Shown piece after piece: positions 11,186 through 42,975 of a stretch of DNA of 42,975 nt. Where the stretch lies: the IMG/VR virus record IMGVR_UViG_2663763400_000010; one strand, written 5' to 3'. The notes under the pieces were generated by a model. That model saw nothing but the letters and a program-made list of their open reading frames with translations. It was not told the DNA's origin and searched no databases. Within the stretch, counting starts at the first letter, position 1. The number at the start of each line of letters is the position of its first letter. A program made the position numbers and the translations under genes. The DNA comes from a virus. Lineage: Duplodnaviria; Heunggongvirae; Uroviricota; Caudoviricetes.

Positions 11186-11730
11186 GCCTCCATCGCTTTA
11201 TCAGGTTTGTCGGTGTTACTGCCCTGACCGTTCTCTCTGTGACGATGCCCGTTATAGGCAAGCCGCATCGCTGACATGGTGGTGCCGCTGGAGTCGCACA
11301 GGTCTTTCACCTGTCCTGTCACTTCCAGGTCCATTTCAAAACGTGCTTCAGGTGCATTGCGAAACGTGATCGTTTTACCTGCACCGTCCACCACGATCCC
11401 CTCCCGGGTCAGCGTCACAGACTGCCCCTGATCGTCATAGACCGCCACCTCACCCGTCTGCAGCCCTTTCAGGCGGTAGCGCCGGTCCGACACCGTAACA
11501 ACCACCGCATGAGAACGGTCACCATCCGGAAACAACACCACCGCTTCCGCACCGCTGTTTGCCCTTGCGGTAAAACCGTAGGGTTCAAGATGTTCAACCC
11601 CGGCTTTGGGTTCACCGGCAATCAGGGACACATCCACGGTCTGACATTTCGTGGCGGCACTGATGCTTTTCACCACTGCCCGCCCAATCAGGCCGAGGAG
11701 TTGTCGCTGCATGGCTTCAATCGTACTCAT
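11182..11730 (-). CDS. baseplate assembly/spike protein V-like (Mu gp45-like)
   Basis: 182 aa; conserved position in the baseplate module. Confidence 0.6.
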   Translation of the reverse strand: MSTIEAMQRQLLGLIGRAVVKSISAATKCQTVDVSLIAGEPKAGVEHLEPYGFTARANSGAEAVVLFPDGDRSHAVVVTVSDRRYRLKGLQTGEVAVYDDQGQSVTLTREGIVVDGAGKTITFRNAPEARFEMDLEVTGQVKDLCDSSGTTMSAMRLAYNGHRHRENGQGSNTDKPDKAMEA

Positions 11731-12809
11731 CAGAACGGGTCCTCCTGTACTCTGGCTTTTTTCTTTTTCCGCGCGCCGGGGGCTTCGGGTTCAGGCAGAT
11801 AAGCATCAGGTGGGCCGACACGGATTTCCGTCAGGGTGCCGTTCTGGTCCTGAGTAAACGTGACTTCCGAGACAAGCAGTTCGGTATTGTCGAAACCACA
11901 GACCGGATCGAAGACAATCACCCGCTGGTTGGGCTGCCACAGCGTACCGTTACCCTGTCGCCAGCCCTGCACCACATAGGTGGTTTCATCCGTCCGCGCC
12001 GCCCGTTGTCGGGCTTCAAAGTCAGCACGCGCAATACAGCCTGCCCCCGTAGCCTGCCCTGTCTGCCTGATATACATCGGACGGTAACGGGCAATAAATG
12101 CGTCCTCTGTGCGGGCCCGCAGCGCGCTGGTGGTGGCCTCACCGAAATCATCGTCGTTTCCAGCACGCTGCCCCGCCACCTGGTAAACAGAAAACCGCTC
12201 CCGGATACTCTTCTCCGTATCGCAGGAAAGGATGTTTTCCCCGAGTACCAGCGCAGTATGTGCCCGCGTTGAGCCAATACCGCCAATCACCAGCCTGCCG
12301 TGTGGGTCGTCGTAAGCCAGTGCCTGCTGCTGACCGAGTATTTTGTTGATTACCTCAATCACCGTTTCACCGTGATCGGGCTGGACGTCAGGAATAACAC
12401 CCGACGGCGCACCGTTGTTCACCACCTCAATGCCGAAAGGCGCAGCAAGCGCCTGCGCAATCTGTACCAGCGATCGTCCGTTAAACTGTGTCGGTTCGGC
12501 TGCACAGTCAATCAGGTCAGCGGTCAGACTGCGTCCGGCAATACCGGTGCTGACCGAACGGGCATCGTAACGAACGGGCGTCGCCTCCACCCAGCCGGTG
12601 ATCACCAGCTCATCACCAATCAGCACCTCCACTTTTGAACCGTTTTTAATGCGCGGCTGAAGCGTGGTGATACCCTCATCACCCGGCCACTGGCGGGTGA
12701 TCTCCACACTGAAATCCCGCGCCAGCCGTTCAATACCGGCACCGATGCGCACCGATGTCCAGCCATTCCACTCCCGGCCATTTACCCGTAGCGTGACGTT
12801 ATCGTTCAT
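11730..12809 (-). CDS. tail/baseplate hub protein (Mu P-like)
   Basis: 359 aa; follows the DNA circularisation gene as in Mu-type tails. Confidence 0.6.
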   Translation of the reverse strand: MNDNVTLRVNGREWNGWTSVRIGAGIERLARDFSVEITRQWPGDEGITTLQPRIKNGSKVEVLIGDELVITGWVEATPVRYDARSVSTGIAGRSLTADLIDCAAEPTQFNGRSLVQIAQALAAPFGIEVVNNGAPSGVIPDVQPDHGETVIEVINKILGQQQALAYDDPHGRLVIGGIGSTRAHTALVLGENILSCDTEKSIRERFSVYQVAGQRAGNDDDFGEATTSALRARTEDAFIARYRPMYIRQTGQATGAGCIARADFEARQRAARTDETTYVVQGWRQGNGTLWQPNQRVIVFDPVCGFDNTELLVSEVTFTQDQNGTLTEIRVGPPDAYLPEPEAPGARKKKKARVQEDPF

Positions 12810-14134
12810 TGCACTGGCACCTTCAGAGGGATCACCGGCACAAAGCCGGGATGCGTAATGGCATTACGCCGGATAATGTCCGCGTCACGCGCCGCGTTAT
12901 CAAACCAGGTCGCCGCCAGCACCAGCGCGGGTAAAACCTCATCCGGTGTGCGCTGAATGATCCGTGCAGACTGTTCAAGGCGCGTGTTGATATCCGCATT
13001 CAGATCTGCTTTCACCCGGCGCAGCGCCAGAAACAGCACATCACTGGTTGTACGGGACAACTCCTTATCAATTGCCGTATTCAGTGTGTCGCGAATGTCG
13101 GTCAGTTCTTCCCACGTTGGCAGGTCAACCGTGTTTTTCACCGCCGGTGCATTGTTCAGTGCCGGATGCGTGACAGAAGGCCAGCCGGTGCTCTGCGCGG
13201 GTGTTGTTGACTGCCCCACTGTGGCATTCTGCATCACCGCGGAAGTTGTGGGCGCAGGCAATCGTGTGACGGCATACGCCGCTTCGCTGATTGCGGTCGT
13301 ACGAAGGGTGCTGGCAACCACGTTACGCTGCTGCGTCGCCGTGGCGGTGGTTTTACTGTCCGTTTTCCAGACGCCGCGCGGTTGCAGATCGCTGCCGAGG
13401 CTGACACCGGAAAGCGTTTTGATCATGGTGACCAGGTCGCTGGCGTTACCATAAAGGCGTTTCCCGGTACGCCACATTTTCTGCACCTGCTCAACGAAAT
13501 TTTTGCCTGACGATGGCGGCGGCAGAAGTACCGAGATATCCCCCTGCAACAGCCTGGCGGCATCCGATACGGCAGAATCCACCACTTTCATCGCATCAGA
13601 AACATACCCAAGCATTGTGCTGGCATTACCGACGACGTCGTTCTGCACAAAATCTGCCACGCCATCGATACTGAAACCACTGAAGCTGTCACTGATGCAG
13701 TCATCCAGTGCAGAACAGGATGACATCAGCGTCTGCGCCGTCGCCGCACCTGAAGTGGGGTAAGAGAGTTCTCCCGCTTCGACAAACTTCAGGTCAAAGC
13801 GGACAATACGCCCTTCACTCTTCGATGTGCTGACCCGAACTTCCCCGTCAACACAGACTTTCAGCTCACCGTAAGTCGGATGGACAAGCGTGCCGGGACC
13901 GGGTTTATTCAGCGCGTCAATCAGGCGATCGCGCTGGTCAAAGCAGTCATCTCCCACCACATAAGCTGTGATGGACGGGCGGAAAGTGATTTTCCCCAGG
14001 TCTTCGGTATAGGGTTTGTCGCGGTTCGGGTATTCGTGCGTTTCCACACGACGACCGGTTCCCGCACTTTCTTCTTCAACCTTAAACGGCACACCGCGAA
14101 ATGACGCGTCCTGAAGTCTGTCTTTCCACGTCAT
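12806..14134 (-). CDS. DNA circularisation protein (Mu N-like)
   Basis: ATG at 14134 (MTWKDRLQDASFRGVPF...) has a GGAG ribosome-binding site; the ORF track extension to 14176 would cover an intergenic hairpin. Confidence 0.65.
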   Translation of the reverse strand: MTWKDRLQDASFRGVPFKVEEESAGTGRRVETHEYPNRDKPYTEDLGKITFRPSITAYVVGDDCFDQRDRLIDALNKPGPGTLVHPTYGELKVCVDGEVRVSTSKSEGRIVRFDLKFVEAGELSYPTSGAATAQTLMSSCSALDDCISDSFSGFSIDGVADFVQNDVVGNASTMLGYVSDAMKVVDSAVSDAARLLQGDISVLLPPPSSGKNFVEQVQKMWRTGKRLYGNASDLVTMIKTLSGVSLGSDLQPRGVWKTDSKTTATATQQRNVVASTLRTTAISEAAYAVTRLPAPTTSAVMQNATVGQSTTPAQSTGWPSVTHPALNNAPAVKNTVDLPTWEELTDIRDTLNTAIDKELSRTTSDVLFLALRRVKADLNADINTRLEQSARIIQRTPDEVLPALVLAATWFDNAARDADIIRRNAITHPGFVPVIPLKVPVQ

Positions 14135-26109: not shown

Positions 26110-26460
26110 TCACTTCAGTCGTTCACGGGCCGTCTTCGCCTTATGACACGGCCAGCACAGGCTCTGCAGATTGCAGTCTGCATCAGTGCCGCCATGCGCT
26201 TTAGGGATGATGTGGTCAACGGTTTTCGCCTCACGCACCACACCGACATGCAGGCACAACTGACACAGGCCTTTGTCACGCTTCAGCACGCGCGCGCGGA
26301 TAACATCCCACTTCGAACCGTAGCCGCGCTGGTGACGGGATTGTCCTGGCTTGTATTGTTTCCAGCCTTCGCTTTTGTGGCTTTCACAATAGCCTGACGG
26401 ATCAGTGGTGGTTTGGCGGCAGCCGCGAACGCGGCAGGCTTTTGGGGTTCGTGGGGGCAT
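26110..26460 (-). CDS. HNH endonuclease (packaging-associated)
   Basis: C-x2-C ... VDHIIPKAHGGTDADCNLQSLCWPCHKAK: HNH motif; sits upstream of the terminase genes as in HK97-type cos phages. Confidence 0.8.
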   Translation of the reverse strand: MPPRTPKACRVRGCRQTTTDPSGYCESHKSEGWKQYKPGQSRHQRGYGSKWDVIRARVLKRDKGLCQLCLHVGVVREAKTVDHIIPKAHGGTDADCNLQSLCWPCHKAKTARERLK

Positions 26461-26562
26461 TTAAAGTGGGATCTAACTCTAATAATTTAAAAAATTTAAT
26501 TGGGTCTTGATATTAATCACATAGACTCAATGCTCTTTAGTTCTTACATAGGTGGTTGTATT

Positions 26563-26730
26563 ATGAGTATCCCCAGTTTAGATGTTCATAAAGTTGTTAA
26601 GTGCGCAGAGCATAAAAAGGCTTTAGATGCAATATCTCTCAAACTTAAGAATAACATTATTGACTCAAGCTCTGAATACGATTTTCTTGGCGACACAATA
26701 ATTTTCAATAAAGATAAAAAAATAGGTTAA
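26563..26730 (+). CDS. hypothetical small protein (AT-rich moron)
   Basis: ORF from the ATG for MSIPSLDV...; very low GC; no recognisable motif. Confidence 0.3.
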   Translation: MSIPSLDVHKVVKCAEHKKALDAISLKLKNNIIDSSSEYDFLGDTIIFNKDKKIG

Positions 26731-27108
26731 CCCTCAAACTTTCAACATATGAACTAGAACTTATTTTCAAAGAAACACTGCTAGTCATTGATGAAGCTCC
26801 TGTATTGAAGTTTGCTGCCATTGACCCAACCGATGAAAATAACAACGAGCTGATTGATTTATTTTTATCCAAAGGTGGATTTATTTATATTAGAGAATAC
26901 AAATCCGAGCCACATTATGAGTATGGCGACACTTCTCTATTTTTACATATACTTGACGCTACTCTTAAAGAGCTTAAATCTGCAAACAAAATATCCTATT
27001 AAATAAATTTTTGCTAACATAGCCCCGCGCCATGACAAGATTTTCTGTTCTAGATGCAAGGGCTATGTGTGAATATCTATAAACAAAAACCCCATCCGGT
27101 GATTTTTG

Positions 27109-27360
27109 TCATTTTTTAGCCATCTCAATTGCGGCATCAAAAAGTCGTTCAAGAATAAAATCAGGGTACTGTAATTTTTCTTGCTCGATATGAAGCTCAT
27201 AAATTTTCCCTTCCCACTCCCATTTAAAATTAAATCCAGAAGCAGAAGGTGCGAAATGTGTTTTAGCTTTAGGGTTAGCGTAACCAGCAACAGTCAACAC
27301 ATCAAACTTAAAATCTTGAGGTTTAATACGCATAATCATATCCTTTGCCAAGTTCATCAT
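27109..27360 (-). CDS. hypothetical small protein (AT-rich moron)
   Basis: 83 aa; low GC; sits between the spanin gene and the packaging region. Confidence 0.4.
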   Translation of the reverse strand: MMNLAKDMIMRIKPQDFKFDVLTVAGYANPKAKTHFAPSASGFNFKWEWEGKIYELHIEQEKLQYPDFILERLFDAAIEMAKK

Positions 27361-27430
27361 TATTCTTCGCGATTATAAAACAATGAATAAAATCATTAAA
27401 GCATAGACGTTAAATATCCTCAAAATGTGA

Positions 27431-27868
27431 TTAGTTGGGACATTGCGTCCTGATATACTCCTGCAAGTAATTGACCTGTGAGGTTATCTTGTCGATTCCA
27501 CTTCGGAGACGGTAATAATGGAGTTCAGCATCTGCTGTAAGTCTAGGGCTTTCTCCATCGCCCATGCCGCTGGCTCCGGTCGTTGACTTTGTACAGGTGG
27601 CGGCGACTTGCAGGCGCTTATGCCCAGCAGAAACATCAGCACGAAGACTTTCGATAGTCGCATTAGCATCAGCAAGCTCCTTTGTATATCTGGCATCGAG
27701 TTCAGCTACATTACGTTGACGCTTCTGCATATCAGCGATGATGGATGTGGCTTTATCGCGCTGTACTTTGTAGACGATGGCGTCATCACGGTAATTATCA
27801 ACAGCCCATGACAAGCAGACGATGATGCAGATAACCAGAGCGGATATAATCACCGTTACTCTGCTCAT
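27431..27868 (-). CDS. i-spanin (Rz-like)
   Basis: N-terminal membrane anchor [17 protein letters not shown] then coiled-coil; directly after the endolysin gene. Confidence 0.75.
27484..27669 (-). CDS. o-spanin lipoprotein (Rz1-like) embedded in the +1 frame of Rz
   Basis: Signal peptide with lipobox LLGISAC followed by a Pro-rich stretch ([16 protein letters not shown]); fully nested in the spanin gene. Confidence 0.6.
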
Positions 27869-28341
27869 ACCTGAATCTCTTTGACCGTTCCGCCGGCTTC
27901 TTTGAATTTTGCAATCAGGCTGTCAGCCTTATGCTCAAACTGACCATAACCAGCTCCCGGCAGTGAAGCCCAGATATTGCTGCAACGGTCGATAGCCTGA
28001 CGAATATCACCGCGATCAATCATCGGTAAAGCACCACGCTCTTTAATCTGCTGCAGTGCAACAGCATCCTGGCTTTTTGGAGAGAAGTCTTTCAGTCCAA
28101 GCTGTTTACGGTATGCATCCCACCAGCGGGAAAGAAGCTGGTAGCGCCCGGCAGCCGTTGATTTGAGTTTTGGGTTTAGCGTGACAAGTCTGCGAGGGTG
28201 ATCGGAGTAATCAGTGAATATTTCTCCGCCCACAATGACGTCATAACCATGATTACGTGTCGGTTGTAGCCCATTATCCGTTCCTTCTGACCAGGCCACC
28301 ATATCGAGGAAAGCTTTACGCTGAGGATTAAGATTTTGCAT
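27865..28341 (-). CDS. endolysin, lambda R-like lytic transglycosylase
   Basis: [20 protein letters not shown]...[10 protein letters not shown]...DYSDHPR is near-identical to recalled lambda R. Confidence 0.9.
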
Positions 28342-36621: not shown

Positions 36622-36732
36622 TACTTGACAATGTACCTTTGAGATACATAATGTACCCAAGAGAAACAACAAACAGGCAGGACGCCCACGAAGTAGCCGC
36701 CTGGGGCATATGAAGTCCAGGATGATTCGTTA

Positions 36733-36787: not shown

Positions 36788-37300
36788 TTACTCAGATTTG
36801 AACTTTGGTTCTGGCAAAAGAGGAGGAGTTGAGTCCTCGAATCGTAGCCAGTGCTCCCAGATATCGTGGGATTGTAATTCCAGAAGACCAATTTGACGTG
36901 ATGCAACTGCAGTGCCAGCTATAGTTCCTCCTGCATAATCAACCTGGACGGACTTTGACGCTTTCTCAATTAATTCTGTCCAAGCTTCACTTTCCGCGTT
37001 AAAAGAAGCAGTTAATTCCTGCAGACGCTGTGGATCATCCTTGTTGTCTTGTTTCAAACGATTCAGGGCGGCCACCGAATACTTATTCTTAACCCAACTA
37101 ACCTGAGCTAACTGAACTCTCTGACAAGCGTCCATATCAGTAGTTGTTTCCTGAGGCATATCAAAGCAGGAAATAAAAAAAGTCTCAACACCATCATTTA
37201 GACTACTGCTCGGCTGGTTCAAAGCATCAGAAGCATTGGATGCTATCGGTATTATCAGTGCTACCGACAGAATCAAACGTTTAACATAAATCGCTCCCAT
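36788..37300 (-). CDS. secreted protein, possibly DUF1311/LprI-like (moron)
   Basis: N-terminal signal peptide (LILSVALIIPIASNA); pattern ...CQRVQLAQVSWVKNKYS... loosely resembles the LprI-family motif. Own terminator, and opposite strand to its neighbours. Confidence 0.45.
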   Translation of the reverse strand: MGAIYVKRLILSVALIIPIASNASDALNQPSSSLNDGVETFFISCFDMPQETTTDMDACQRVQLAQVSWVKNKYSVAALNRLKQDNKDDPQRLQELTASFNAESEAWTELIEKASKSVQVDYAGGTIAGTAVASRQIGLLELQSHDIWEHWLRFEDSTPPLLPEPKFKSE

Positions 37301-37585
37301 TTAATTATCCCCTCTAAGAACAGAGTCATCCAGATTAGCCGAATCCTTGTTGTTGGGGAATAACCAGGCCCACCTCGCCTGATGTGGCTAAAAGCAGGCA
37401 CATAACAGCTAAGTATTTTCAACCAGAGAGAATCCTTAGCGTTGTGGTGAATGCGGCTCAGCGCACGCGGGTTAAGGTTGAGGCTGACAGTCGACCTTCT
37501 GTGGATACCCACCCGCCTGGTGTGCAACCTTCGCCAGGCACCGGGAGGCACCCGGCACCACAACTTTATGCTGTGTGTAGTCCTG

Positions 37586-37631
37586 GCGGTACCAGCTTGT
37601 ACCCTTGCTTCCGGCTGGTACCGCTCTTTTT
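37586..37631 (+). terminator. strong intrinsic terminator-like hairpin in the early-left leader
   Basis: GCGGTACCAGC ...17 nt... GCTGGTACCGC (11-bp stem) followed by TCTTTTT. Confidence 0.5.
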
Positions 37632-37720
37632 ACAAAACAGAGAAGAGCATCACCGGACGACGGGCTCATAACCCAATCCACCCGGGCGGCTGCCACCGCA
37701 GGTGTTCTTCTCTGTTTTGT
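37632..37720. repeat. 15-bp perfect inverted repeat enclosing 59 nt (structured leader element)
   Basis: ACAAAACAGAGAAGA at 37632-37646 and its exact reverse complement TCTTCTCTGTTTTGT at 37706-37720; non-coding. Confidence 0.5.
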
Positions 37721-37768
37721 GGAGAAACCAACCGACCTTGCAGGGTCGATATGATGAGGAGCAGCAAA

Positions 37769-39148: not shown

Positions 39149-39673
39149 ATGTCATTTATTAAAACTTTTTCCGGGAAGCATTTTTATTATGACAGGATAA
39201 ATAAAGACGACATCGTTATTAACGATATCGCGGTTTCTCTTTCAAATATCTGTCGCTTTGCAGGACATCTTTCACATTTCTACAGCGTCGCCCAACATGC
39301 GGTGCTTTGCAGCCAACTGGTACCGCAGGAATTTGCTTTTGAAGCGTTAATGCATGATGCAACAGAAGCGTATTGCCAGGACATCCCGGCGCCACTGAAA
39401 CGCCTTCTTCCTGACTATAAACGGATGGAAGAAAAAATAGACGCCGTAATCCGTGAGAAATACGGGTTACCCCCGGTTATGAGTACGCCCGTGAAATATG
39501 CCGATCTCATCATGCTGGCAACCGAACGCCGCGATCTCGGGCTTGATGATGGCTCTTTCTGGCCCGTACTGGAAGGTATCCCGGCAACAGAGATGTTCAA
39601 AGTTATTCCACTGTCGCCAGGCCATACCTATGGGATGTTTATGGAACGCTTTAAAGAGTTAACTGAGTCGTAA
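39149..39673 (+). CDS. HD-domain phosphohydrolase (YfdR-like 5-prime-deoxynucleotidase)
   Basis: H...HD metal-binding motifs (SVAQHAV...ALMHDATEAY); ATG at 39149 with GGAG ribosome-binding site preferred over GTG at 39122. Confidence 0.7.
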   Translation: MSFIKTFSGKHFYYDRINKDDIVINDIAVSLSNICRFAGHLSHFYSVAQHAVLCSQLVPQEFAFEALMHDATEAYCQDIPAPLKRLLPDYKRMEEKIDAVIREKYGLPPVMSTPVKYADLIMLATERRDLGLDDGSFWPVLEGIPATEMFKVIPLSPGHTYGMFMERFKELTES

Positions 39674-39781
39674 AAATCAGCACGTACGAATTCAAACTCT
39701 GCCATAAAAGAACATATAAGTAATTTATTAACATATAGATATAGGTTATATTACAAATTGAAAAATTATTGGAGAGCAACA

Positions 39782-40648
39782 ATGAATCAAAATCCATTCT
39801 CATTCTATGACTTTCTTGGATATTTAATACCAGGTGGTTTTTTTATCCTATTAATGTATTTCTGTGGTTTGACATTCGATCTAGATATTGTTATTGACTT
39901 AAGTGAATTGCTCAGAGGTCAAAGTCAAATCTTTGGCATTTTGAACTACGCTTCAATAGTTATTATATCTTATATAGCTGGACATTTTATTTCTATCACG
40001 TCAGCATTTTTTATCGAAAAATACATGAATAAAGAATTAGGATATCCTTCCAAATATCTATTTAAAAAATTGATAGATACCTCAGAAAGCATTTGTAGCC
40101 CATCATGCGATGAGAGAAGCGCTGATAAAAAAACAAAAATAAAGAATCGCATAATCAAATGCGTATTATGTCCAATAATACTATGGGATTTTATAACACA
40201 AAAACTATGTTATTCTCAATCTCTACCATTTCATTTAGCTAATACAACATGGTTAATGATCAAAGAAGGTTATGAGAAAAAGTTCATAACAAATCGCCAA
40301 TTATTACAAGATAAAAACGGACTTGATGATGATCTCTTCAGATTGGCATATCATTATGTTTATGAGTTTTCAAAACAACATCAAACAAAAATTCAAAACT
40401 ATGTTGCATTATATGGTTTTTGCAGAAACATATGTTTAATCTTTATAATTTCATTTTGGGTATCAGTTCCAACCTTTATTTATCGATTATGTACTCATAG
40501 TGATTATCTTTATAGTTTACTTTCAATAATGCTTAGCTTTTTCTTCGTCTATGTTTTCTATGTTGGTTTTGTTAAATTTTATAGAAGATATACTTTAGAA
40601 GTATTAATGGCATTTGCTGTACTTCAAAGTAACGACACTATTCGTTAA
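39782..40648 (+). CDS. AT-rich multi-pass membrane protein of unknown function (moron next to xis/int)
   Basis: 288 aa from ATG at 39782 (GGAG ribosome-binding site); about four hydrophobic helices (two N-terminal, two C-terminal) around a ~120-aa soluble region; GC far below the flanking genes; AT-rich upstream region of its own. Confidence 0.6.
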   Translation: MNQNPFSFYDFLGYLIPGGFFILLMYFCGLTFDLDIVIDLSELLRGQSQIFGILNYASIVIISYIAGHFISITSAFFIEKYMNKELGYPSKYLFKKLIDTSESICSPSCDERSADKKTKIKNRIIKCVLCPIILWDFITQKLCYSQSLPFHLANTTWLMIKEGYEKKFITNRQLLQDKNGLDDDLFRLAYHYVYEFSKQHQTKIQNYVALYGFCRNICLIFIISFWVSVPTFIYRLCTHSDYLYSLLSIMLSFFFVYVFYVGFVKFYRRYTLEVLMAFAVLQSNDTIR

Positions 40649-40689
40649 TAATGTTGCTCCCGTGTGCAGACGGGATAATGGAGAAACGT

Positions 40690-40896
40690 ATGCTGAACCT
40701 CGATTGTGTTCCTATCTCAACTTATTGCAAAGAAACTGGCGAAACTCCTGAAGCAATAAACAAACGTGTACAGCGCGGTGTTTGGCGTGAAGGTGTTCAG
40801 GTTTTAAAGGTTGAAGGCGTTAAGGAGAGGTGGATTGATCTTAGTGAGGTTGCAAAATGGGCCAGACAAAACTGCTCAAACTACCGCGCGGCGTAA
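40690..40896 (+). CDS. xis: excisionase-like DNA-binding protein
   Basis: Small basic protein immediately upstream of and overlapping int; ATG at 40690 with GGAG ribosome-binding site. Family assignment is tentative. Confidence 0.45.
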   Translation: MLNLDCVPISTYCKETGETPEAINKRVQRGVWREGVQVLKVEGVKERWIDLSEVAKWARQNCSNYRAA

Positions 40897-42029
40897 CAAT
40901 CAGGAAACACCACCAGGGAGAAACGATCAATATAACTTTCACCTACAAAGGAGTTAGATGTCGTGAGCCGCTTTCCAATCTGGAAGTAACACCAAAGAAC
41001 ATTAAATACGCCGAGCGTACACTCGGCGAAATCCATAATAAGATCGAAAGGGGAACATTCATTTATGCAGAATATTTTCCCCGTTCTGCTCGTTTGAAAA
41101 TTTTTGGTAATGCTGCTGCAAGCAAAACGGTAAAGATGTACCTGGACGAATATCTTGAAATCTGCGAAACAAGAAAACTTTCACCCTCTACGATTGGTGG
41201 CTATAAAAAATGCCGTAGTGCGTTAGCCTCACTTCACATTTGCCCTGCAAGTGAATTAACACCAGCAACCCTGAAAGCGTGGATTCAAAGCCAGAAAACA
41301 ACCTTAAAAACCATTCGCAACCAGTTATCTTTCCTACGGTCAGCACTTGATGAAGCCGTGACCGATGGGGTACTTCAAATTAACCCCGTATCGTTAGTAA
41401 CAGCTTCGCGCTACCAAAGTGATAAGTCAGAAGCAGAAAGCAGCTATGTGGTTGATCCGCTATCACCAGCAGAAGTTGATGCATTACTAGCAGCAGCCGG
41501 AAACAAACAATGGGAAAATCTGTTCCGGTTCGCCATACATACAGGCCTGCGTAGTTCTGAATTATGTGCCCTACGATGGCATGATATCGACTTTGTTGGA
41601 AAAACAGCCCATGTTCAGAGCGCAAGTGTTGTCGGAGTTATCAAAGGAACAAAGACAAAAGCCGGTACCCGTAAAGTTGAACTGACTGAAGAAGCAATGT
41701 TGGCGTTGATAAACCAGAAGCCATTTACATTCATGAAGGATGCTACTGTCTTTGAAGATCCAAAGACCAATAAACCCTGGGCAAGTGCTGATGCAATTAG
41801 GAAAAAAGCATGGGTGCCAACATTGCGAAAAGCAGGTATTCGTTACAGAAACCCATATCAAACCAGGCATACATTCGCCACCAGCCATATCAGCCGGGGA
41901 GCAAACCTGTTTTGGCTTGCGGCTCAAATGGGCCATAAAGGGCCTGAAATGTTATTCAGGCACTATGGACAATACTTGAAAGAGTATGATGGGAGGGCAA
42001 GTATCAAGGATAAAAAGGCTTTATTTTAA
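40857..42029 (+). CDS. int: tyrosine integrase (phage integrase family)
   Basis: 390 aa; C-terminal catalytic region with ...RHTFATSHISRGANLFWLAAQMGHKGPEMLFRHYGQY (R...H..R...Y) and an N-terminal arm-binding-like domain. Confidence 0.85.
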   Translation: MGQTKLLKLPRGVTIRKHHQGETINITFTYKGVRCREPLSNLEVTPKNIKYAERTLGEIHNKIERGTFIYAEYFPRSARLKIFGNAAASKTVKMYLDEYLEICETRKLSPSTIGGYKKCRSALASLHICPASELTPATLKAWIQSQKTTLKTIRNQLSFLRSALDEAVTDGVLQINPVSLVTASRYQSDKSEAESSYVVDPLSPAEVDALLAAAGNKQWENLFRFAIHTGLRSSELCALRWHDIDFVGKTAHVQSASVVGVIKGTKTKAGTRKVELTEEAMLALINQKPFTFMKDATVFEDPKTNKPWASADAIRKKAWVPTLRKAGIRYRNPYQTRHTFATSHISRGANLFWLAAQMGHKGPEMLFRHYGQYLKEYDGRASIKDKKALF

Positions 42030-42620
42030 GTCATTATGCCAATCGTCTACTGTTTGAAACCAAATTTTTAACCTTTGCATAAAGGTACGATCCTTTTTGG
42101 GAGGGTGGTACCTTTGAAAAGAAGTATGTAACGCTTCGATAACTCCCATACAAGCATCAATTACTTCTTGTGCTTTAACCGGGCGATCGGCATCTGAAAG
42201 CTTGTGAGCGACCTCACAATCCAGAGTTGCTTTCTCTAGTACAGATGAGAACACCTCGTCAGGTATATACAGTCCTCTGCTTTCCAAAATGCAAATCAGT
42301 TTGGAAACTTGTTGAGCTTTAGCCAAGATAGTTAACAAGTATGAAACAGAAGCCTTTGTTCTATCCTTTTGCAACCTTAACAATCGATGCTTTGATGCTC
42401 TAATTTTAGGTTGAGTTGTCTGACTGAGCCAATAGTTAGAAGAAATATCAGAAATTTCAATAACTAACTTTGAAATAGCATCAATAATTGATTTCGATTC
42501 AGAACGTGTCGCCAGTTTTACAGAATTATTGTACGCAACTCGCCATCCAATGAAAACTAAGCAGACGCTAACTACTGTGATACACCACGAATACTGTCCT
42601 ATTTGTGCTACTAATGACAT
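42021..42620 (-). CDS. hypothetical protein with one N-terminal transmembrane helix
   Basis: ATG at 42620 (MSLVAQIGQYSWCITVVSVCLVFIGW...) preferred over TTG at 42638; convergent with int; low GC. Confidence 0.4.
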   Translation of the reverse strand: MSLVAQIGQYSWCITVVSVCLVFIGWRVAYNNSVKLATRSESKSIIDAISKLVIEISDISSNYWLSQTTQPKIRASKHRLLRLQKDRTKASVSYLLTILAKAQQVSKLICILESRGLYIPDEVFSSVLEKATLDCEVAHKLSDADRPVKAQEVIDACMGVIEALHTSFQRYHPPKKDRTFMQRLKIWFQTVDDWHNDLK

Positions 42621-42648
42621 TGGTTCCGTACTGATCAACTATCGCCTC

Positions 42649-42975
42649 TTATACTCTTTCTGGTTGTGCTAAATCAATAAATTTATCAATCTGTTCTTTG
42701 TAGAACGGAACATCACTTTTTATAATCAAACGTGCTTTAACGTTGGCTTTAGGTATCCCTTCCTTACGGATGAGACCTCCAAACGCCTCTTCTAAGAAAG
42801 AGGAACCAACACCCAGTGCTATACCGCGAAAATCAACCACAATCTCCTGTTCAGTACCCTTCAGCGCAGGCACCAAAAACTCTCTACGAAATCTTTCCGC
42901 ACTGTGTGGGCTATCCGTTGTGTAACGTCCGAAAGGTGTTCTGGAGAACTCCTTCGCTATGACGATATTTCTCAT
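42649..42975 (-). CDS. hypothetical protein; N-terminus may lie beyond the window edge
   Basis: ORF runs to the last base of the window; tandem with 42021-42620 on the same strand. Confidence 0.35.
   Translation of the reverse strand: MRNIVIAKEFSRTPFGRYTTDSPHSAERFRREFLVPALKGTEQEIVVDFRGIALGVGSSFLEEAFGGLIRKEGIPKANVKARLIIKSDVPFYKEQIDKFIDLAQPERV

Follow-up and report, generated by a model that had tools for sequence, protein, structure and literature searches.

Why would a temperate phage carry a strikingly AT-rich gene for a membrane protein directly in front of its excision and integration genes? This question is raised by a 42,975-nt stretch of caudoviricete DNA (IMG/VR record IMGVR_UViG_2663763400_000010), which is called the window here. 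Between a yfdR-type gene and the excisionase and integrase genes xis and int, the window contains a gene for a 288-aa protein (Table 1) that is annotated as hypothetical or uncharacterized in public sources (UTI89, UniProt A0A0B1MB33) and is contained in PHROG 12528 (function not assigned). The gene was found to be a mobile cargo cassette of Escherichia coli prophages. Its product is predicted to be an inner-membrane protein of a large family remotely related to the CRISPR accessory protein Csx27, and may serve in the exclusion of phages or foreign DNA.

An Exchangeable Cargo Cassette of Escherichia coli Prophages

The region had a 100% identical counterpart in the chromosomal prophage of E. 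coli UTI89, S88, APEC O1, IHE3034 and the type strain ATCC 11775; for the CFT073 prophage, the identity was 99.9%. In UTI89, the prophage is inserted beside glaH/csiD. The host element is a lambdoid E. coli prophage of the CPS-53/yfdPQR type. In the sister prophages of JJ1886, C3, AR_0369 and C 236-04A, backbone identity of 95.6–97.2% extended up to position 39668 and was found again from position 40659; since homology stops and resumes at these positions, the cassette was delimited as 39669–40658. The sister prophages carry an alternative allele in the same yfdR–xis slot, namely a 610-bp segment that encodes a DUF551 protein and a 71-aa protein. Downstream of the cassette, the backbone homology with the sister prophages ended at 41992.

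With a GC content of 28.4%, as compared to 49.7% for the window, the gene is the lowest-GC 867-bp stretch of the window, about 3.2 standard deviations under the mean. The 108-bp spacer in front of it (39674–39781) has a GC content of 25.9%. The GC content at third codon positions (GC3) was 21.5% for the gene vs. 39–47% for yfdQ, yfdR, xis and int. Since GC3 was depressed as well, the AT bias is not only an effect of hydrophobicity, and the idea that low GC merely follows from encoding a hydrophobic protein was ruled out. The initial annotation of this locus, made by a model from the letters of the sequence, had described a very AT-rich gene, far lower in GC than its neighbors, preceded by about 100 bp of AT-rich sequence and wedged between an HD hydrolase gene and xis/int, and this description was borne out in every part. 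As is characteristic of morons, the gene is a discrete insertion, with 28% GC vs. about 46% in the flanks, whose place is taken by other genes in sister prophages. Direct or inverted repeats at the flanks were dismissed as an insertion signature, since only chance-level AT-rich repeats were present at the cassette edges. No structured RNA or tRNA was found near the cassette.

The open reading frame (ORF) starts with ATG at 39782, 5 nt downstream of the ribosome-binding site (RBS) GGAGAG at 39771–39776, and this start is corroborated because nearly all homologues open with M-x-QNPFS at residue 1. The gene was compared to an E. coli allele whose product shares 78% amino acid identity. Identity was 92–100% up to about position 39950 and 66–83% thereafter, where the alleles run into different excision modules, that of the 78% allele being of the PrtN type. 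Based on the sliding identity profile and a ratio of nonsynonymous to synonymous substitution rates (dN/dS) of about 0.2, the sharp divergence was attributed to a recombination junction within the ORF and not to accelerated evolution, and diversifying selection as its cause was ruled out. The dN/dS of the gene was 0.17–0.23 overall and 0.03–0.05 in the second transmembrane (TM) helix. The gene is real, maintained and under purifying selection, and it constitutes a horizontally mobile, self-contained cargo cassette.

The Family Is Large and Spans Many Phyla

A word-indexed search returned 593 homologues, none of which was named. An exhaustive profile search of 1.84 billion cluster representatives yielded 952 family clusters (counted at the 50% level) at E ≤ 1e-3, of which 210 reached E ≤ 1e-30; nearly all had a length of 260–320 aa and matched end to end. 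Family loci were found in Gammaproteobacteria, Bacteroidota, Bacillota, Chloroflexota, Acidobacteriota, Gemmatimonadota, Spirochaetota and others, and the family alignment used below comprises 136 sequences, down to about 27% identity. The GC content of the family gene was below that of its flanks in 77 of 78 loci, on average by 9.9 points, and GC3 was on average 12.4 points below that of the neighboring genes (lower in 92% of 75 loci). Lower GC across hosts is typical of mobile accessory genes.

When 5426 complete E. coli genomes were inspected, the allele of the window was detected in 205, the allele of P2-like phages in 289 and any detectable member in 492 (about 9%), while only 4 of 72,556 plasmids carried a family member. 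The initial annotation had recognized no family for the protein; this is superseded by the family of 952 clusters, PHROG 12528, the similarity to Csx27 and the listing as part of a P2 system described below. The family is catalogued (PHROG 12528; P2-hotspot table), yet uncharacterized.

A Predicted Four-Helix Inner-Membrane Protein with a Conserved Cytoplasmic Face

According to Kyte–Doolittle hydropathy, the protein has four hydrophobic segments (approximately aa 13–33, 52–78, 207–232 and 243–267) in a 2 + 2 arrangement around a loop of about 125 aa. The AlphaFold2 (AF2) model built from a deep alignment was all-helical, with a predicted local distance difference test score (pLDDT) of 90.5 and a predicted template modeling score (pTM) of 0.89. 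It comprised long helices at 8–31, 52–86, 198–237 and 243–287 with a helical domain in the middle, and low confidence was confined to residues ~100–110. Two N-terminal and two C-terminal helices around a soluble region had been proposed initially, with topology and structure prediction named as means of checking, and both predictions gave this arrangement. In the 136-sequence alignment, the family-average net charge was +6.5 for the large loop and slightly negative for both short loops. Since positive charges are expected inside, the large domain and both termini are predicted to be cytoplasmic. The sequence thus predicts an inner-membrane protein with four TM helices, cytoplasmic termini and a cytoplasmic helical domain of about 125 aa.

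The conserved blocks of the family are N4-PFSxYDFLGY-xxPG18, Y64..G67-H68..S74..E79, Y88-P-S90, P131, D184..R187..H191..E195..H200..K203..N206-YVALYGF-x-R215 and K265-FYRR..E273. Within TM2, Y64, G67 and S74 are invariant and H68 is near-invariant, and E79 lies at the cytoplasmic face. The cytoplasmic domain contains the YPS motif (88–90), the variable low-confidence stretch at ~100–110 and the D184..R187..H191..E195..H200..K203..N206 block leading into TM3. It also contains a semi-hydrophobic helix–Pro131–helix element at ~115–145, which may re-enter the membrane or lie at its interface. The conserved polar residues would, in the predicted topology, all be placed at cytoplasmic helix ends. 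The resulting cluster (NPFSxYDFLGY, Y64/H68/S74/E79, H191/H200/K203/N206/R215 and K265/R268/E273) would be the likely functional site, with a role in gating, ligand binding or catalysis.

No fold relatives were found by Foldseek among solved structures and viral predicted structures (E ≥ 0.7), a sequence-profile search of the PDB gave nothing significant (E ≥ 0.19), and no Pfam family was matched by the protein even at E ≤ 1. Stators of the MotA/ExbB/TolQ type, which share the 2 + 2 TM layout, were rejected because fold similarity to solved MotA/PomA structures was insignificant.

The Family Is Remotely Related to Csx27

The 288-aa protein matched the PADLOC model of Csx27 with E = 1.4e-5, aligning aa 6–268 to model positions 4–188 of 206, and the sister type VI-B model tm_4 with E = 1.3e-3. 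Among the 136 family members, 96 matched PADLOC Csx27 (best E = 2.2e-10) and 31 matched tm_4. The second, independent model of Csx27, that of NCBIfam, was matched by 25 members (best E = 2e-6), while every other NCBIfam model was matched by two members at most. For the 288-aa protein, the match to the NCBIfam model NF040557 covered aa 5–43, i.e., the region of the N-terminal signature and only 39 aa, and its score of 14.9 bits (E = 0.02) was below the equivalog cutoff of 65 bits; even the best family member stayed far under this cutoff. Since Csx27 is the sole recurrent match in libraries rich in other membrane proteins, a composition artefact is argued against. Judged from these profile matches, the family is a remote relative of Csx27 and not an orthologue.

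Csx27, the accessory protein of type VI-B1 CRISPR-Cas13b systems (NF040557, PDLC01605), resembles the 288-aa protein in having four predicted TM helices. The N-terminal motif is common to both, and the profile similarity extends across all four helices. Moreover, both are small accessory membrane proteins with no enzymatic domain recognizable by sequence. The 288-aa protein differs in being about 80 aa longer than the Csx27 model, the surplus probably lying mostly in the cytoplasmic domain between TM2 and TM3, and, unlike Csx27, its branch stands alone. Neither cas13b nor a CRISPR array adjoins the gene, whose neighbors are yfdR, xis and int, and no Cas domain is among the 25 Pfam families listed for 135 family neighbors.

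In 2019, Makarova, Gao, Zhang & Koonin (FEMS Microbiol Lett 366:fnz088; as cited in PMC7642515 and PMC11662929) reportedly proposed a wider four-TM Csx27 family, which is said to be tied to natural-transformation, ubiquitin-like, WYL or DNA-modification genes. Natural-transformation, ubiquitin-system, WYL and DNA-modification genes were all absent from the same 25 Pfam families. For the stand-alone branch of about 280 aa beside xis/int and its link to Csx27, no description was found in the literature searched; the 2019 paper on the Csx27 family may include it. Csx27 was later proposed on genomic grounds to be a single-stranded DNA channel tied to natural transformation.

Genomic Context in Prophages and across Phyla

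The gene is placed directly upstream of xis–int regularly in enterobacterial prophages, whichever of at least four integrase types is present. Among 72 IMG/VR viral contigs that carry the gene, an integrase gene on the same strand starts at most 1.5 kb downstream in 48, and these integrases belong to at least four types; in 32 IMG/VR contigs, the gene lies within 2.6 kb of a contig end. In Salmonella (78% identity), the order is cI-like repressor, a 740-bp gap, gene, xis and int. Enterobacter (48% identity) has the gene followed by DUF4224 and an integrase. A further prophage type (the P0118 loci; 48% identity) has the gene followed by a lambda-type Exc and an Arm-DNA-bind_1 integrase, and Klebsiella phage P7641 (52% identity) has the gene, a 75-aa gene and an integrase. 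The gene is kept where yfdPQR is absent and, as the 78% allele, also in an element with no integrase called within the 7 kb shown. Beyond int, related prophages carry DarTG, an AAA-ATPase with a Dam methylase, DUF4238 or putAbiC, of which DUF4238 is a validated defense system (PMC9122126).

In the E. coli loci with the 78% allele (L090–L094), an opposite-strand gene with a SocA/Panacea domain was observed about 1–1.6 kb downstream, just past a PrtN-like gene. It has an overlapping or closely adjacent small gene, and the element lies beside zur/dinF/lexA. Panacea domains being antitoxin modules, this pair may be a toxin–antitoxin system at the prophage end.

Outside the enterobacterial clade, integrase adjacency was ruled out as a family-wide trait. 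When 1002 neighboring ORFs of 80 loci from many phyla were clustered by BLAST, no neighbor cluster occurred in more than six loci, and the commonest Pfam family among 135 immediate neighbors was phage integrase, with four. A conserved partner gene was ruled out by this clustering and by Pfam and PADLOC tallies of the 135 immediate neighbors. Since neighbors are not conserved across loci, the family appears to act as a single gene. Besides integrases, the neighbors elsewhere included RecT, Type I restriction–modification subunits, MADS components, AbiEii-like ATPases, glycosyltransferases and housekeeping genes. A homologue search with neighborhood analysis had been suggested along with the initial annotation; its outcome was a large cross-phylum family lacking a conserved partner gene.

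In P2-like E. coli phages, a homologue with 42% identity sits between gpA and gpQ, in the hotspot where old and tin are located and which has been established as a reservoir of defense systems (PMC9122126). The exact P2-like homologue is protein 2 ("4 TM") of system #3, "DUF4760", with 1102 occurrences (Rousset et al. 2022, Table S5B, PMC9122126), and the cassette of DUF4760 and the 4TM protein is the third most frequent one of the P2 hotspot (PMC9122126). System #3 is absent from the main text of PMC9122126, and because of this omission no test of it was found there. As regards a defense role, the hotspot location is suggestive only.

Protein 2 of system #3 is a full-length homologue of 280 aa, with 42% identity over query aa 1–226 by tblastn and motifs shared with the 288-aa protein through to the C-terminus. 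It is likewise temperate-phage cargo in E. coli, present in the 289 of 5426 complete genomes given above. The two differ in location, system #3 occupying the cos-proximal gpA–gpQ hotspot of a P2-like myovirus whereas the 288-aa gene lies by xis/int of a lambdoid phage, and in that system #3 has an upstream DUF4760 gene encoding one TM helix, a partner which the 288-aa gene does not have. DUF4760 was ruled out as a general partner, as tblastn found it only at the P2-like locus and neither in the window nor at about 100 other loci. The DUF4760 gene is annotated in RefSeq E. coli genomes; in Escherichia phage vB_EcoM-705R2 (ON470623.1; locus L084, 4464–4958), it is unannotated and small opposite-strand ORFs are listed there instead.

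A Possible Exclusion or Defense Role at the Inner Membrane and Its Alternatives

Judged from context only, an exclusion or defense role at the inner membrane is the reading that we favor, although we place it just short of an even chance. In such a role, the protein would act alone at the cytoplasmic membrane and protect the lysogen or the induced cell from other phages or incoming DNA. This could be achieved in two ways. First, the protein might interfere with genome entry (superinfection exclusion). Second, it might cause membrane function to collapse upon infection (abortive infection). The initial annotation had pointed out that genes at this position in temperate phages are often superinfection-exclusion or abortive-infection factors. 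The contextual side of this idea gained ground through the swappable slot, the homologue in the P2 hotspot and the DarTG, DUF4238 and putAbiC genes beyond int, while the function itself is still inferred.

Morons and membrane exclusion proteins such as lambda RexB, P22 SieA/SieB, HK97 gp15, T4 Imm and Kiwa KwaA are also accessory genes in variable slots of temperate phages. The 288-aa protein resembles them as a small polytopic inner-membrane protein encoded by a compositionally distinct gene, and RexB and KwaA have four TM helices. It differs from them in that it has no sequence match to RexB, SieA/SieB, HK97 gp15, Imm or KwaA, in its large conserved cytoplasmic domain and in standing without a partner, unlike RexA/RexB and KwaA/KwaB. 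Of the promoter and terminator that define a moron, no terminator was present and no consensus promoter was found in the spacer. RexB, KwaA, ZorA, Csx28, SieB and TM effectors of CBASS/Pycsar were considered as candidates and discarded, as there was no match in PADLOC or Pfam.

Several points weigh against an exclusion or defense role. In the literature, no report of a phenotype was found for the 288-aa protein, the P2 cassette or any family member, and among the validated defense proteins in PADLOC there was no match beyond the weak ones to Csx27 and tm_4. No biochemical function has been assigned to Csx27; in E. coli, it lowered interference by Cas13b, and its membrane localization could not be shown. 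Many cross-phylum loci adjoin housekeeping or polysaccharide genes. The commonest entry of the P2 hotspot is a plasmid-stability pair, so that such slots also hold non-defense cargo (PMC9122126). Furthermore, no consensus sigma-70 promoter was found by a scan of 39674–39781, where the best candidate by eye, TTCAAA (39691–39696)-18-TATAAG (39715–39720), failed the scan criteria, and from the stop codon (40648) to xis (40690), no terminator was detected on the + strand. The promoter region of its own that had been ascribed to the gene was therefore not recovered. Because no terminator lies before xis, the transcript should continue into xis/int, and on these sequence signals the gene is probably on one transcript with xis–int. 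It may have a weak promoter of its own, or it may be no more than the final piece of cargo in the early-left operon. Such read-through points to expression upon induction and not in the lysogen, with which a role in the phage cycle would agree equally well.

The spacer showed a single mismatch in 190 bp among three E. coli alleles; since recent recombination explains this near-identity, its conservation is uninformative on function. The diverged cassette of locus L104 has a promoter-like site, TTGGCA-16-TAAAAT (10/12), about 113 bp before its ATG. In loci L095 and L104, strong intrinsic terminators were observed right after the cI-like repressor genes (L095, 6277–6299; L104, 5225–5252), followed by 740–800 bp with no called genes up to the membrane-protein gene. 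Since the repressor gene ends in a strong terminator, the gene is not on the cI transcript in the Salmonella and P0118-type prophages.

A wider claim can be put forward tentatively, and we lean somewhat against it: the stand-alone Csx27-like proteins as a whole would be a widespread single-gene immunity or exclusion system, directed against entry of foreign DNA or phage at the inner membrane. Its carriers would be lambdoid prophages with the gene by xis/int, P2-like phages with the gene in the old/tin hotspot, and chromosomal islands across phyla.

Instead of protecting its host, the gene could serve phage development as a membrane protein of the early-left operon that is co-transcribed with xis–int after induction or infection. 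It could then alter membrane energetics or cell division, influence the timing of lysis or exclude other phages only in lytic growth, much as T4 Imm and Sp exclude secondary infection during lytic growth. The gene is oriented like the early-left genes and xis–int, ends 41 bp before xis with neither terminator nor consensus promoter, lies immediately upstream of xis–int in 48 of the 72 viral contigs and is off the lysogenic cI transcript in Salmonella and P0118-type prophages, all of which speaks for such a role. Nevertheless, we consider it unlikely: this type of phage can dispense with the gene, as sister prophages have the DUF551 and 71-aa genes there; in other phyla, most members stand alone in the chromosome without a phage gene directly next to them; the gene persists in the element with no integrase called in the 7 kb shown; the P2-like phages hold the homologue in an accessory hotspot and not among their core genes; and the diverged cassette of L104 has a promoter-like site of its own.

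Still less probable, in our view, is an enzyme of lysogenic conversion that modifies a lipid, a lipid-linked glycan or the O-antigen of the envelope and thereby alters receptor availability, in analogy to gtr or oac. Serotype-converting genes sit by int/xis in P22- and Sf6-type phages, gtr and oac encoding membrane proteins from AT-rich DNA, and the position of the 288-aa gene is the same. The (near-)invariant His, Glu, Ser, Arg, Lys, Asn and Tyr residues at one membrane face resemble an active site, and several cross-phylum homologues adjoin glycosyltransferases, epimerases and WecG-type enzymes. However, the conserved site is predicted to face the cytoplasm, there was no sequence or fold similarity to acyl-, glycosyl- or phosphotransferase families, and the sole profile relationship is to Csx27. 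Per family, only 2–3 of the 135 neighbors were glycosyltransferases, and polysaccharide loci are in their own right hypervariable places of insertion.

Finally, a selfish membrane toxin or addiction element, or a neutral hitch-hiker, silenced for example by H-NS and spread by recombination of phage modules, would fit the extremely AT-rich DNA, the mosaic junction that makes the gene a recombination substrate between backbones and the SocA/Panacea antitoxin-domain gene nearby in one context, but is very improbable in view of the strong purifying selection with a very low dN/dS in TM2, the motifs deeply conserved across phyla to ~27% identity, the position conserved across unrelated recombination modules and the absence of a conserved antitoxin-like partner.

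Coordinates of the Cassette and Other Loci of the Prophage

Table 1. Position of the cassette, its gene, the predicted protein segments and the flanking genes in the window.
Feature	Position	Strand	Remarks
Swappable cargo cassette (last yfdR bases, AT-rich spacer and ORF)	39669..40658	+	990 bp; homology breakpoints; matches low-GC trough
yfdR-type HD 5'-deoxynucleotidase gene	39149..39673	+	left flank; backbone gene, outside cassette
AT-rich spacer	39674..39781	+	25.9% GC; promoter possible; RBS GGAGAG at its 3' end
Gene of the Csx27-like inner-membrane protein (four TM helices, predicted)	39782..40648	+	288 aa; WP_001075212.1, UniProt A0A0B1MB33, PHROG 12528
N-terminal signature N4-P-F-S-x-Y-D-F-L-G-Y-x-x-P-G18	39791..39835	+	most conserved block of the family, 88–100% in 136 sequences
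TM1 (aa 13–33), periplasmic loop (aa 34–51, net negative) and TM2 (aa 52–78), predicted	39818..40015	+	hydropathy, AF2, charge
Mosaic recombination junction within ORF	39950..40000	+	sliding identity profile vs. E. coli allele with 78% amino acid identity
Cytoplasmic helical domain (aa 79–206), predicted	40016..40399	+	net charge, AF2, conservation
TM3 (aa 207–232; R215 invariant), short periplasmic loop, TM4 (aa 243–267) and cytoplasmic tail K265-F-Y-R-R..E273, predicted	40400..40645	+	
Excisionase gene (xis)	40690..40896	+	right flank; starts 41 bp past the 288-aa gene
Arm-DNA-bind_2 tyrosine integrase gene (int)	40857..42029	+	right flank

Beyond int, a set of three genes on the minus strand extends from 42021–42975 past the end of the window (11422–13292 of the UTI89 locus L001). 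Its products are a HATPase_c_2-like protein of 303 aa, whose gene lies outside the window, a DUF4325 STAS-like protein of 108 aa and a protein of 199/205 aa with a hydrophobic N-terminus. PADLOC gave no match for this set. Given the defense genes at this locus in sister prophages, it looks like a candidate for a defense system of the partner-switching type.

Three short blocks of 30–65 nt (36665–36729, 37370–37399 and 37633–37687) recur with 86–93% identity in prophages of Salmonella and others that are otherwise unrelated (L095, L104). Their location is a GC-rich and largely non-coding stretch following the cI-like repressor gene, and they may be regulatory sites or a small RNA; no match to Rfam or to a tRNA was found for them. 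This stretch (37300–37760) has a GC content of 54%, and its annotation in UTI89 is that of a frameshifted pseudogene. The interval between yfdP and the repressor gene contains a minus-strand gene (36788–37300), and the N-terminus of its 170-aa product (PHROG 7681) resembles a signal peptide. Since the AR_0369 prophage carries a gene of the ECs1072 family here instead, the position may be a further cargo slot.

Apart from the cassette, GC is markedly low in the window only at ~26460–27430 (about 34% in 867-bp windows). The segment contains an 83-aa ORF (27109–27360, minus strand) and may likewise be an accessory insertion. It is bordered on the left by an HNH endonuclease gene (26110–26460, minus strand) and on the right by a 145-aa ORF next to a lysozyme-like ORF (27431–28341, minus strand); judged from the translations, the latter two are probably the lysis genes.

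Implications for Prophage Cargo and the Csx27 Family

The placement upstream of xis–int marks a second, little-described cargo slot of lambdoid prophages, beside the int-distal slot with DarTG, DUF4238 and putAbiC. If the protein is protective, a compact single-gene membrane defense is already common in E. coli, including UTI89, CFT073, S88, APEC O1 and the type strain of the species, and this would explain the third most frequent cassette of the P2 defense hotspot. Being remotely related to Csx27, the protein offers a model, amenable to genetics in E. coli, for an accessory protein of CRISPR systems that has lacked an explained mechanism since 2017. If stand-alone members indeed form a single-gene immunity system, the E. 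coli version would reveal the role of Csx27 in type VI-B CRISPR.

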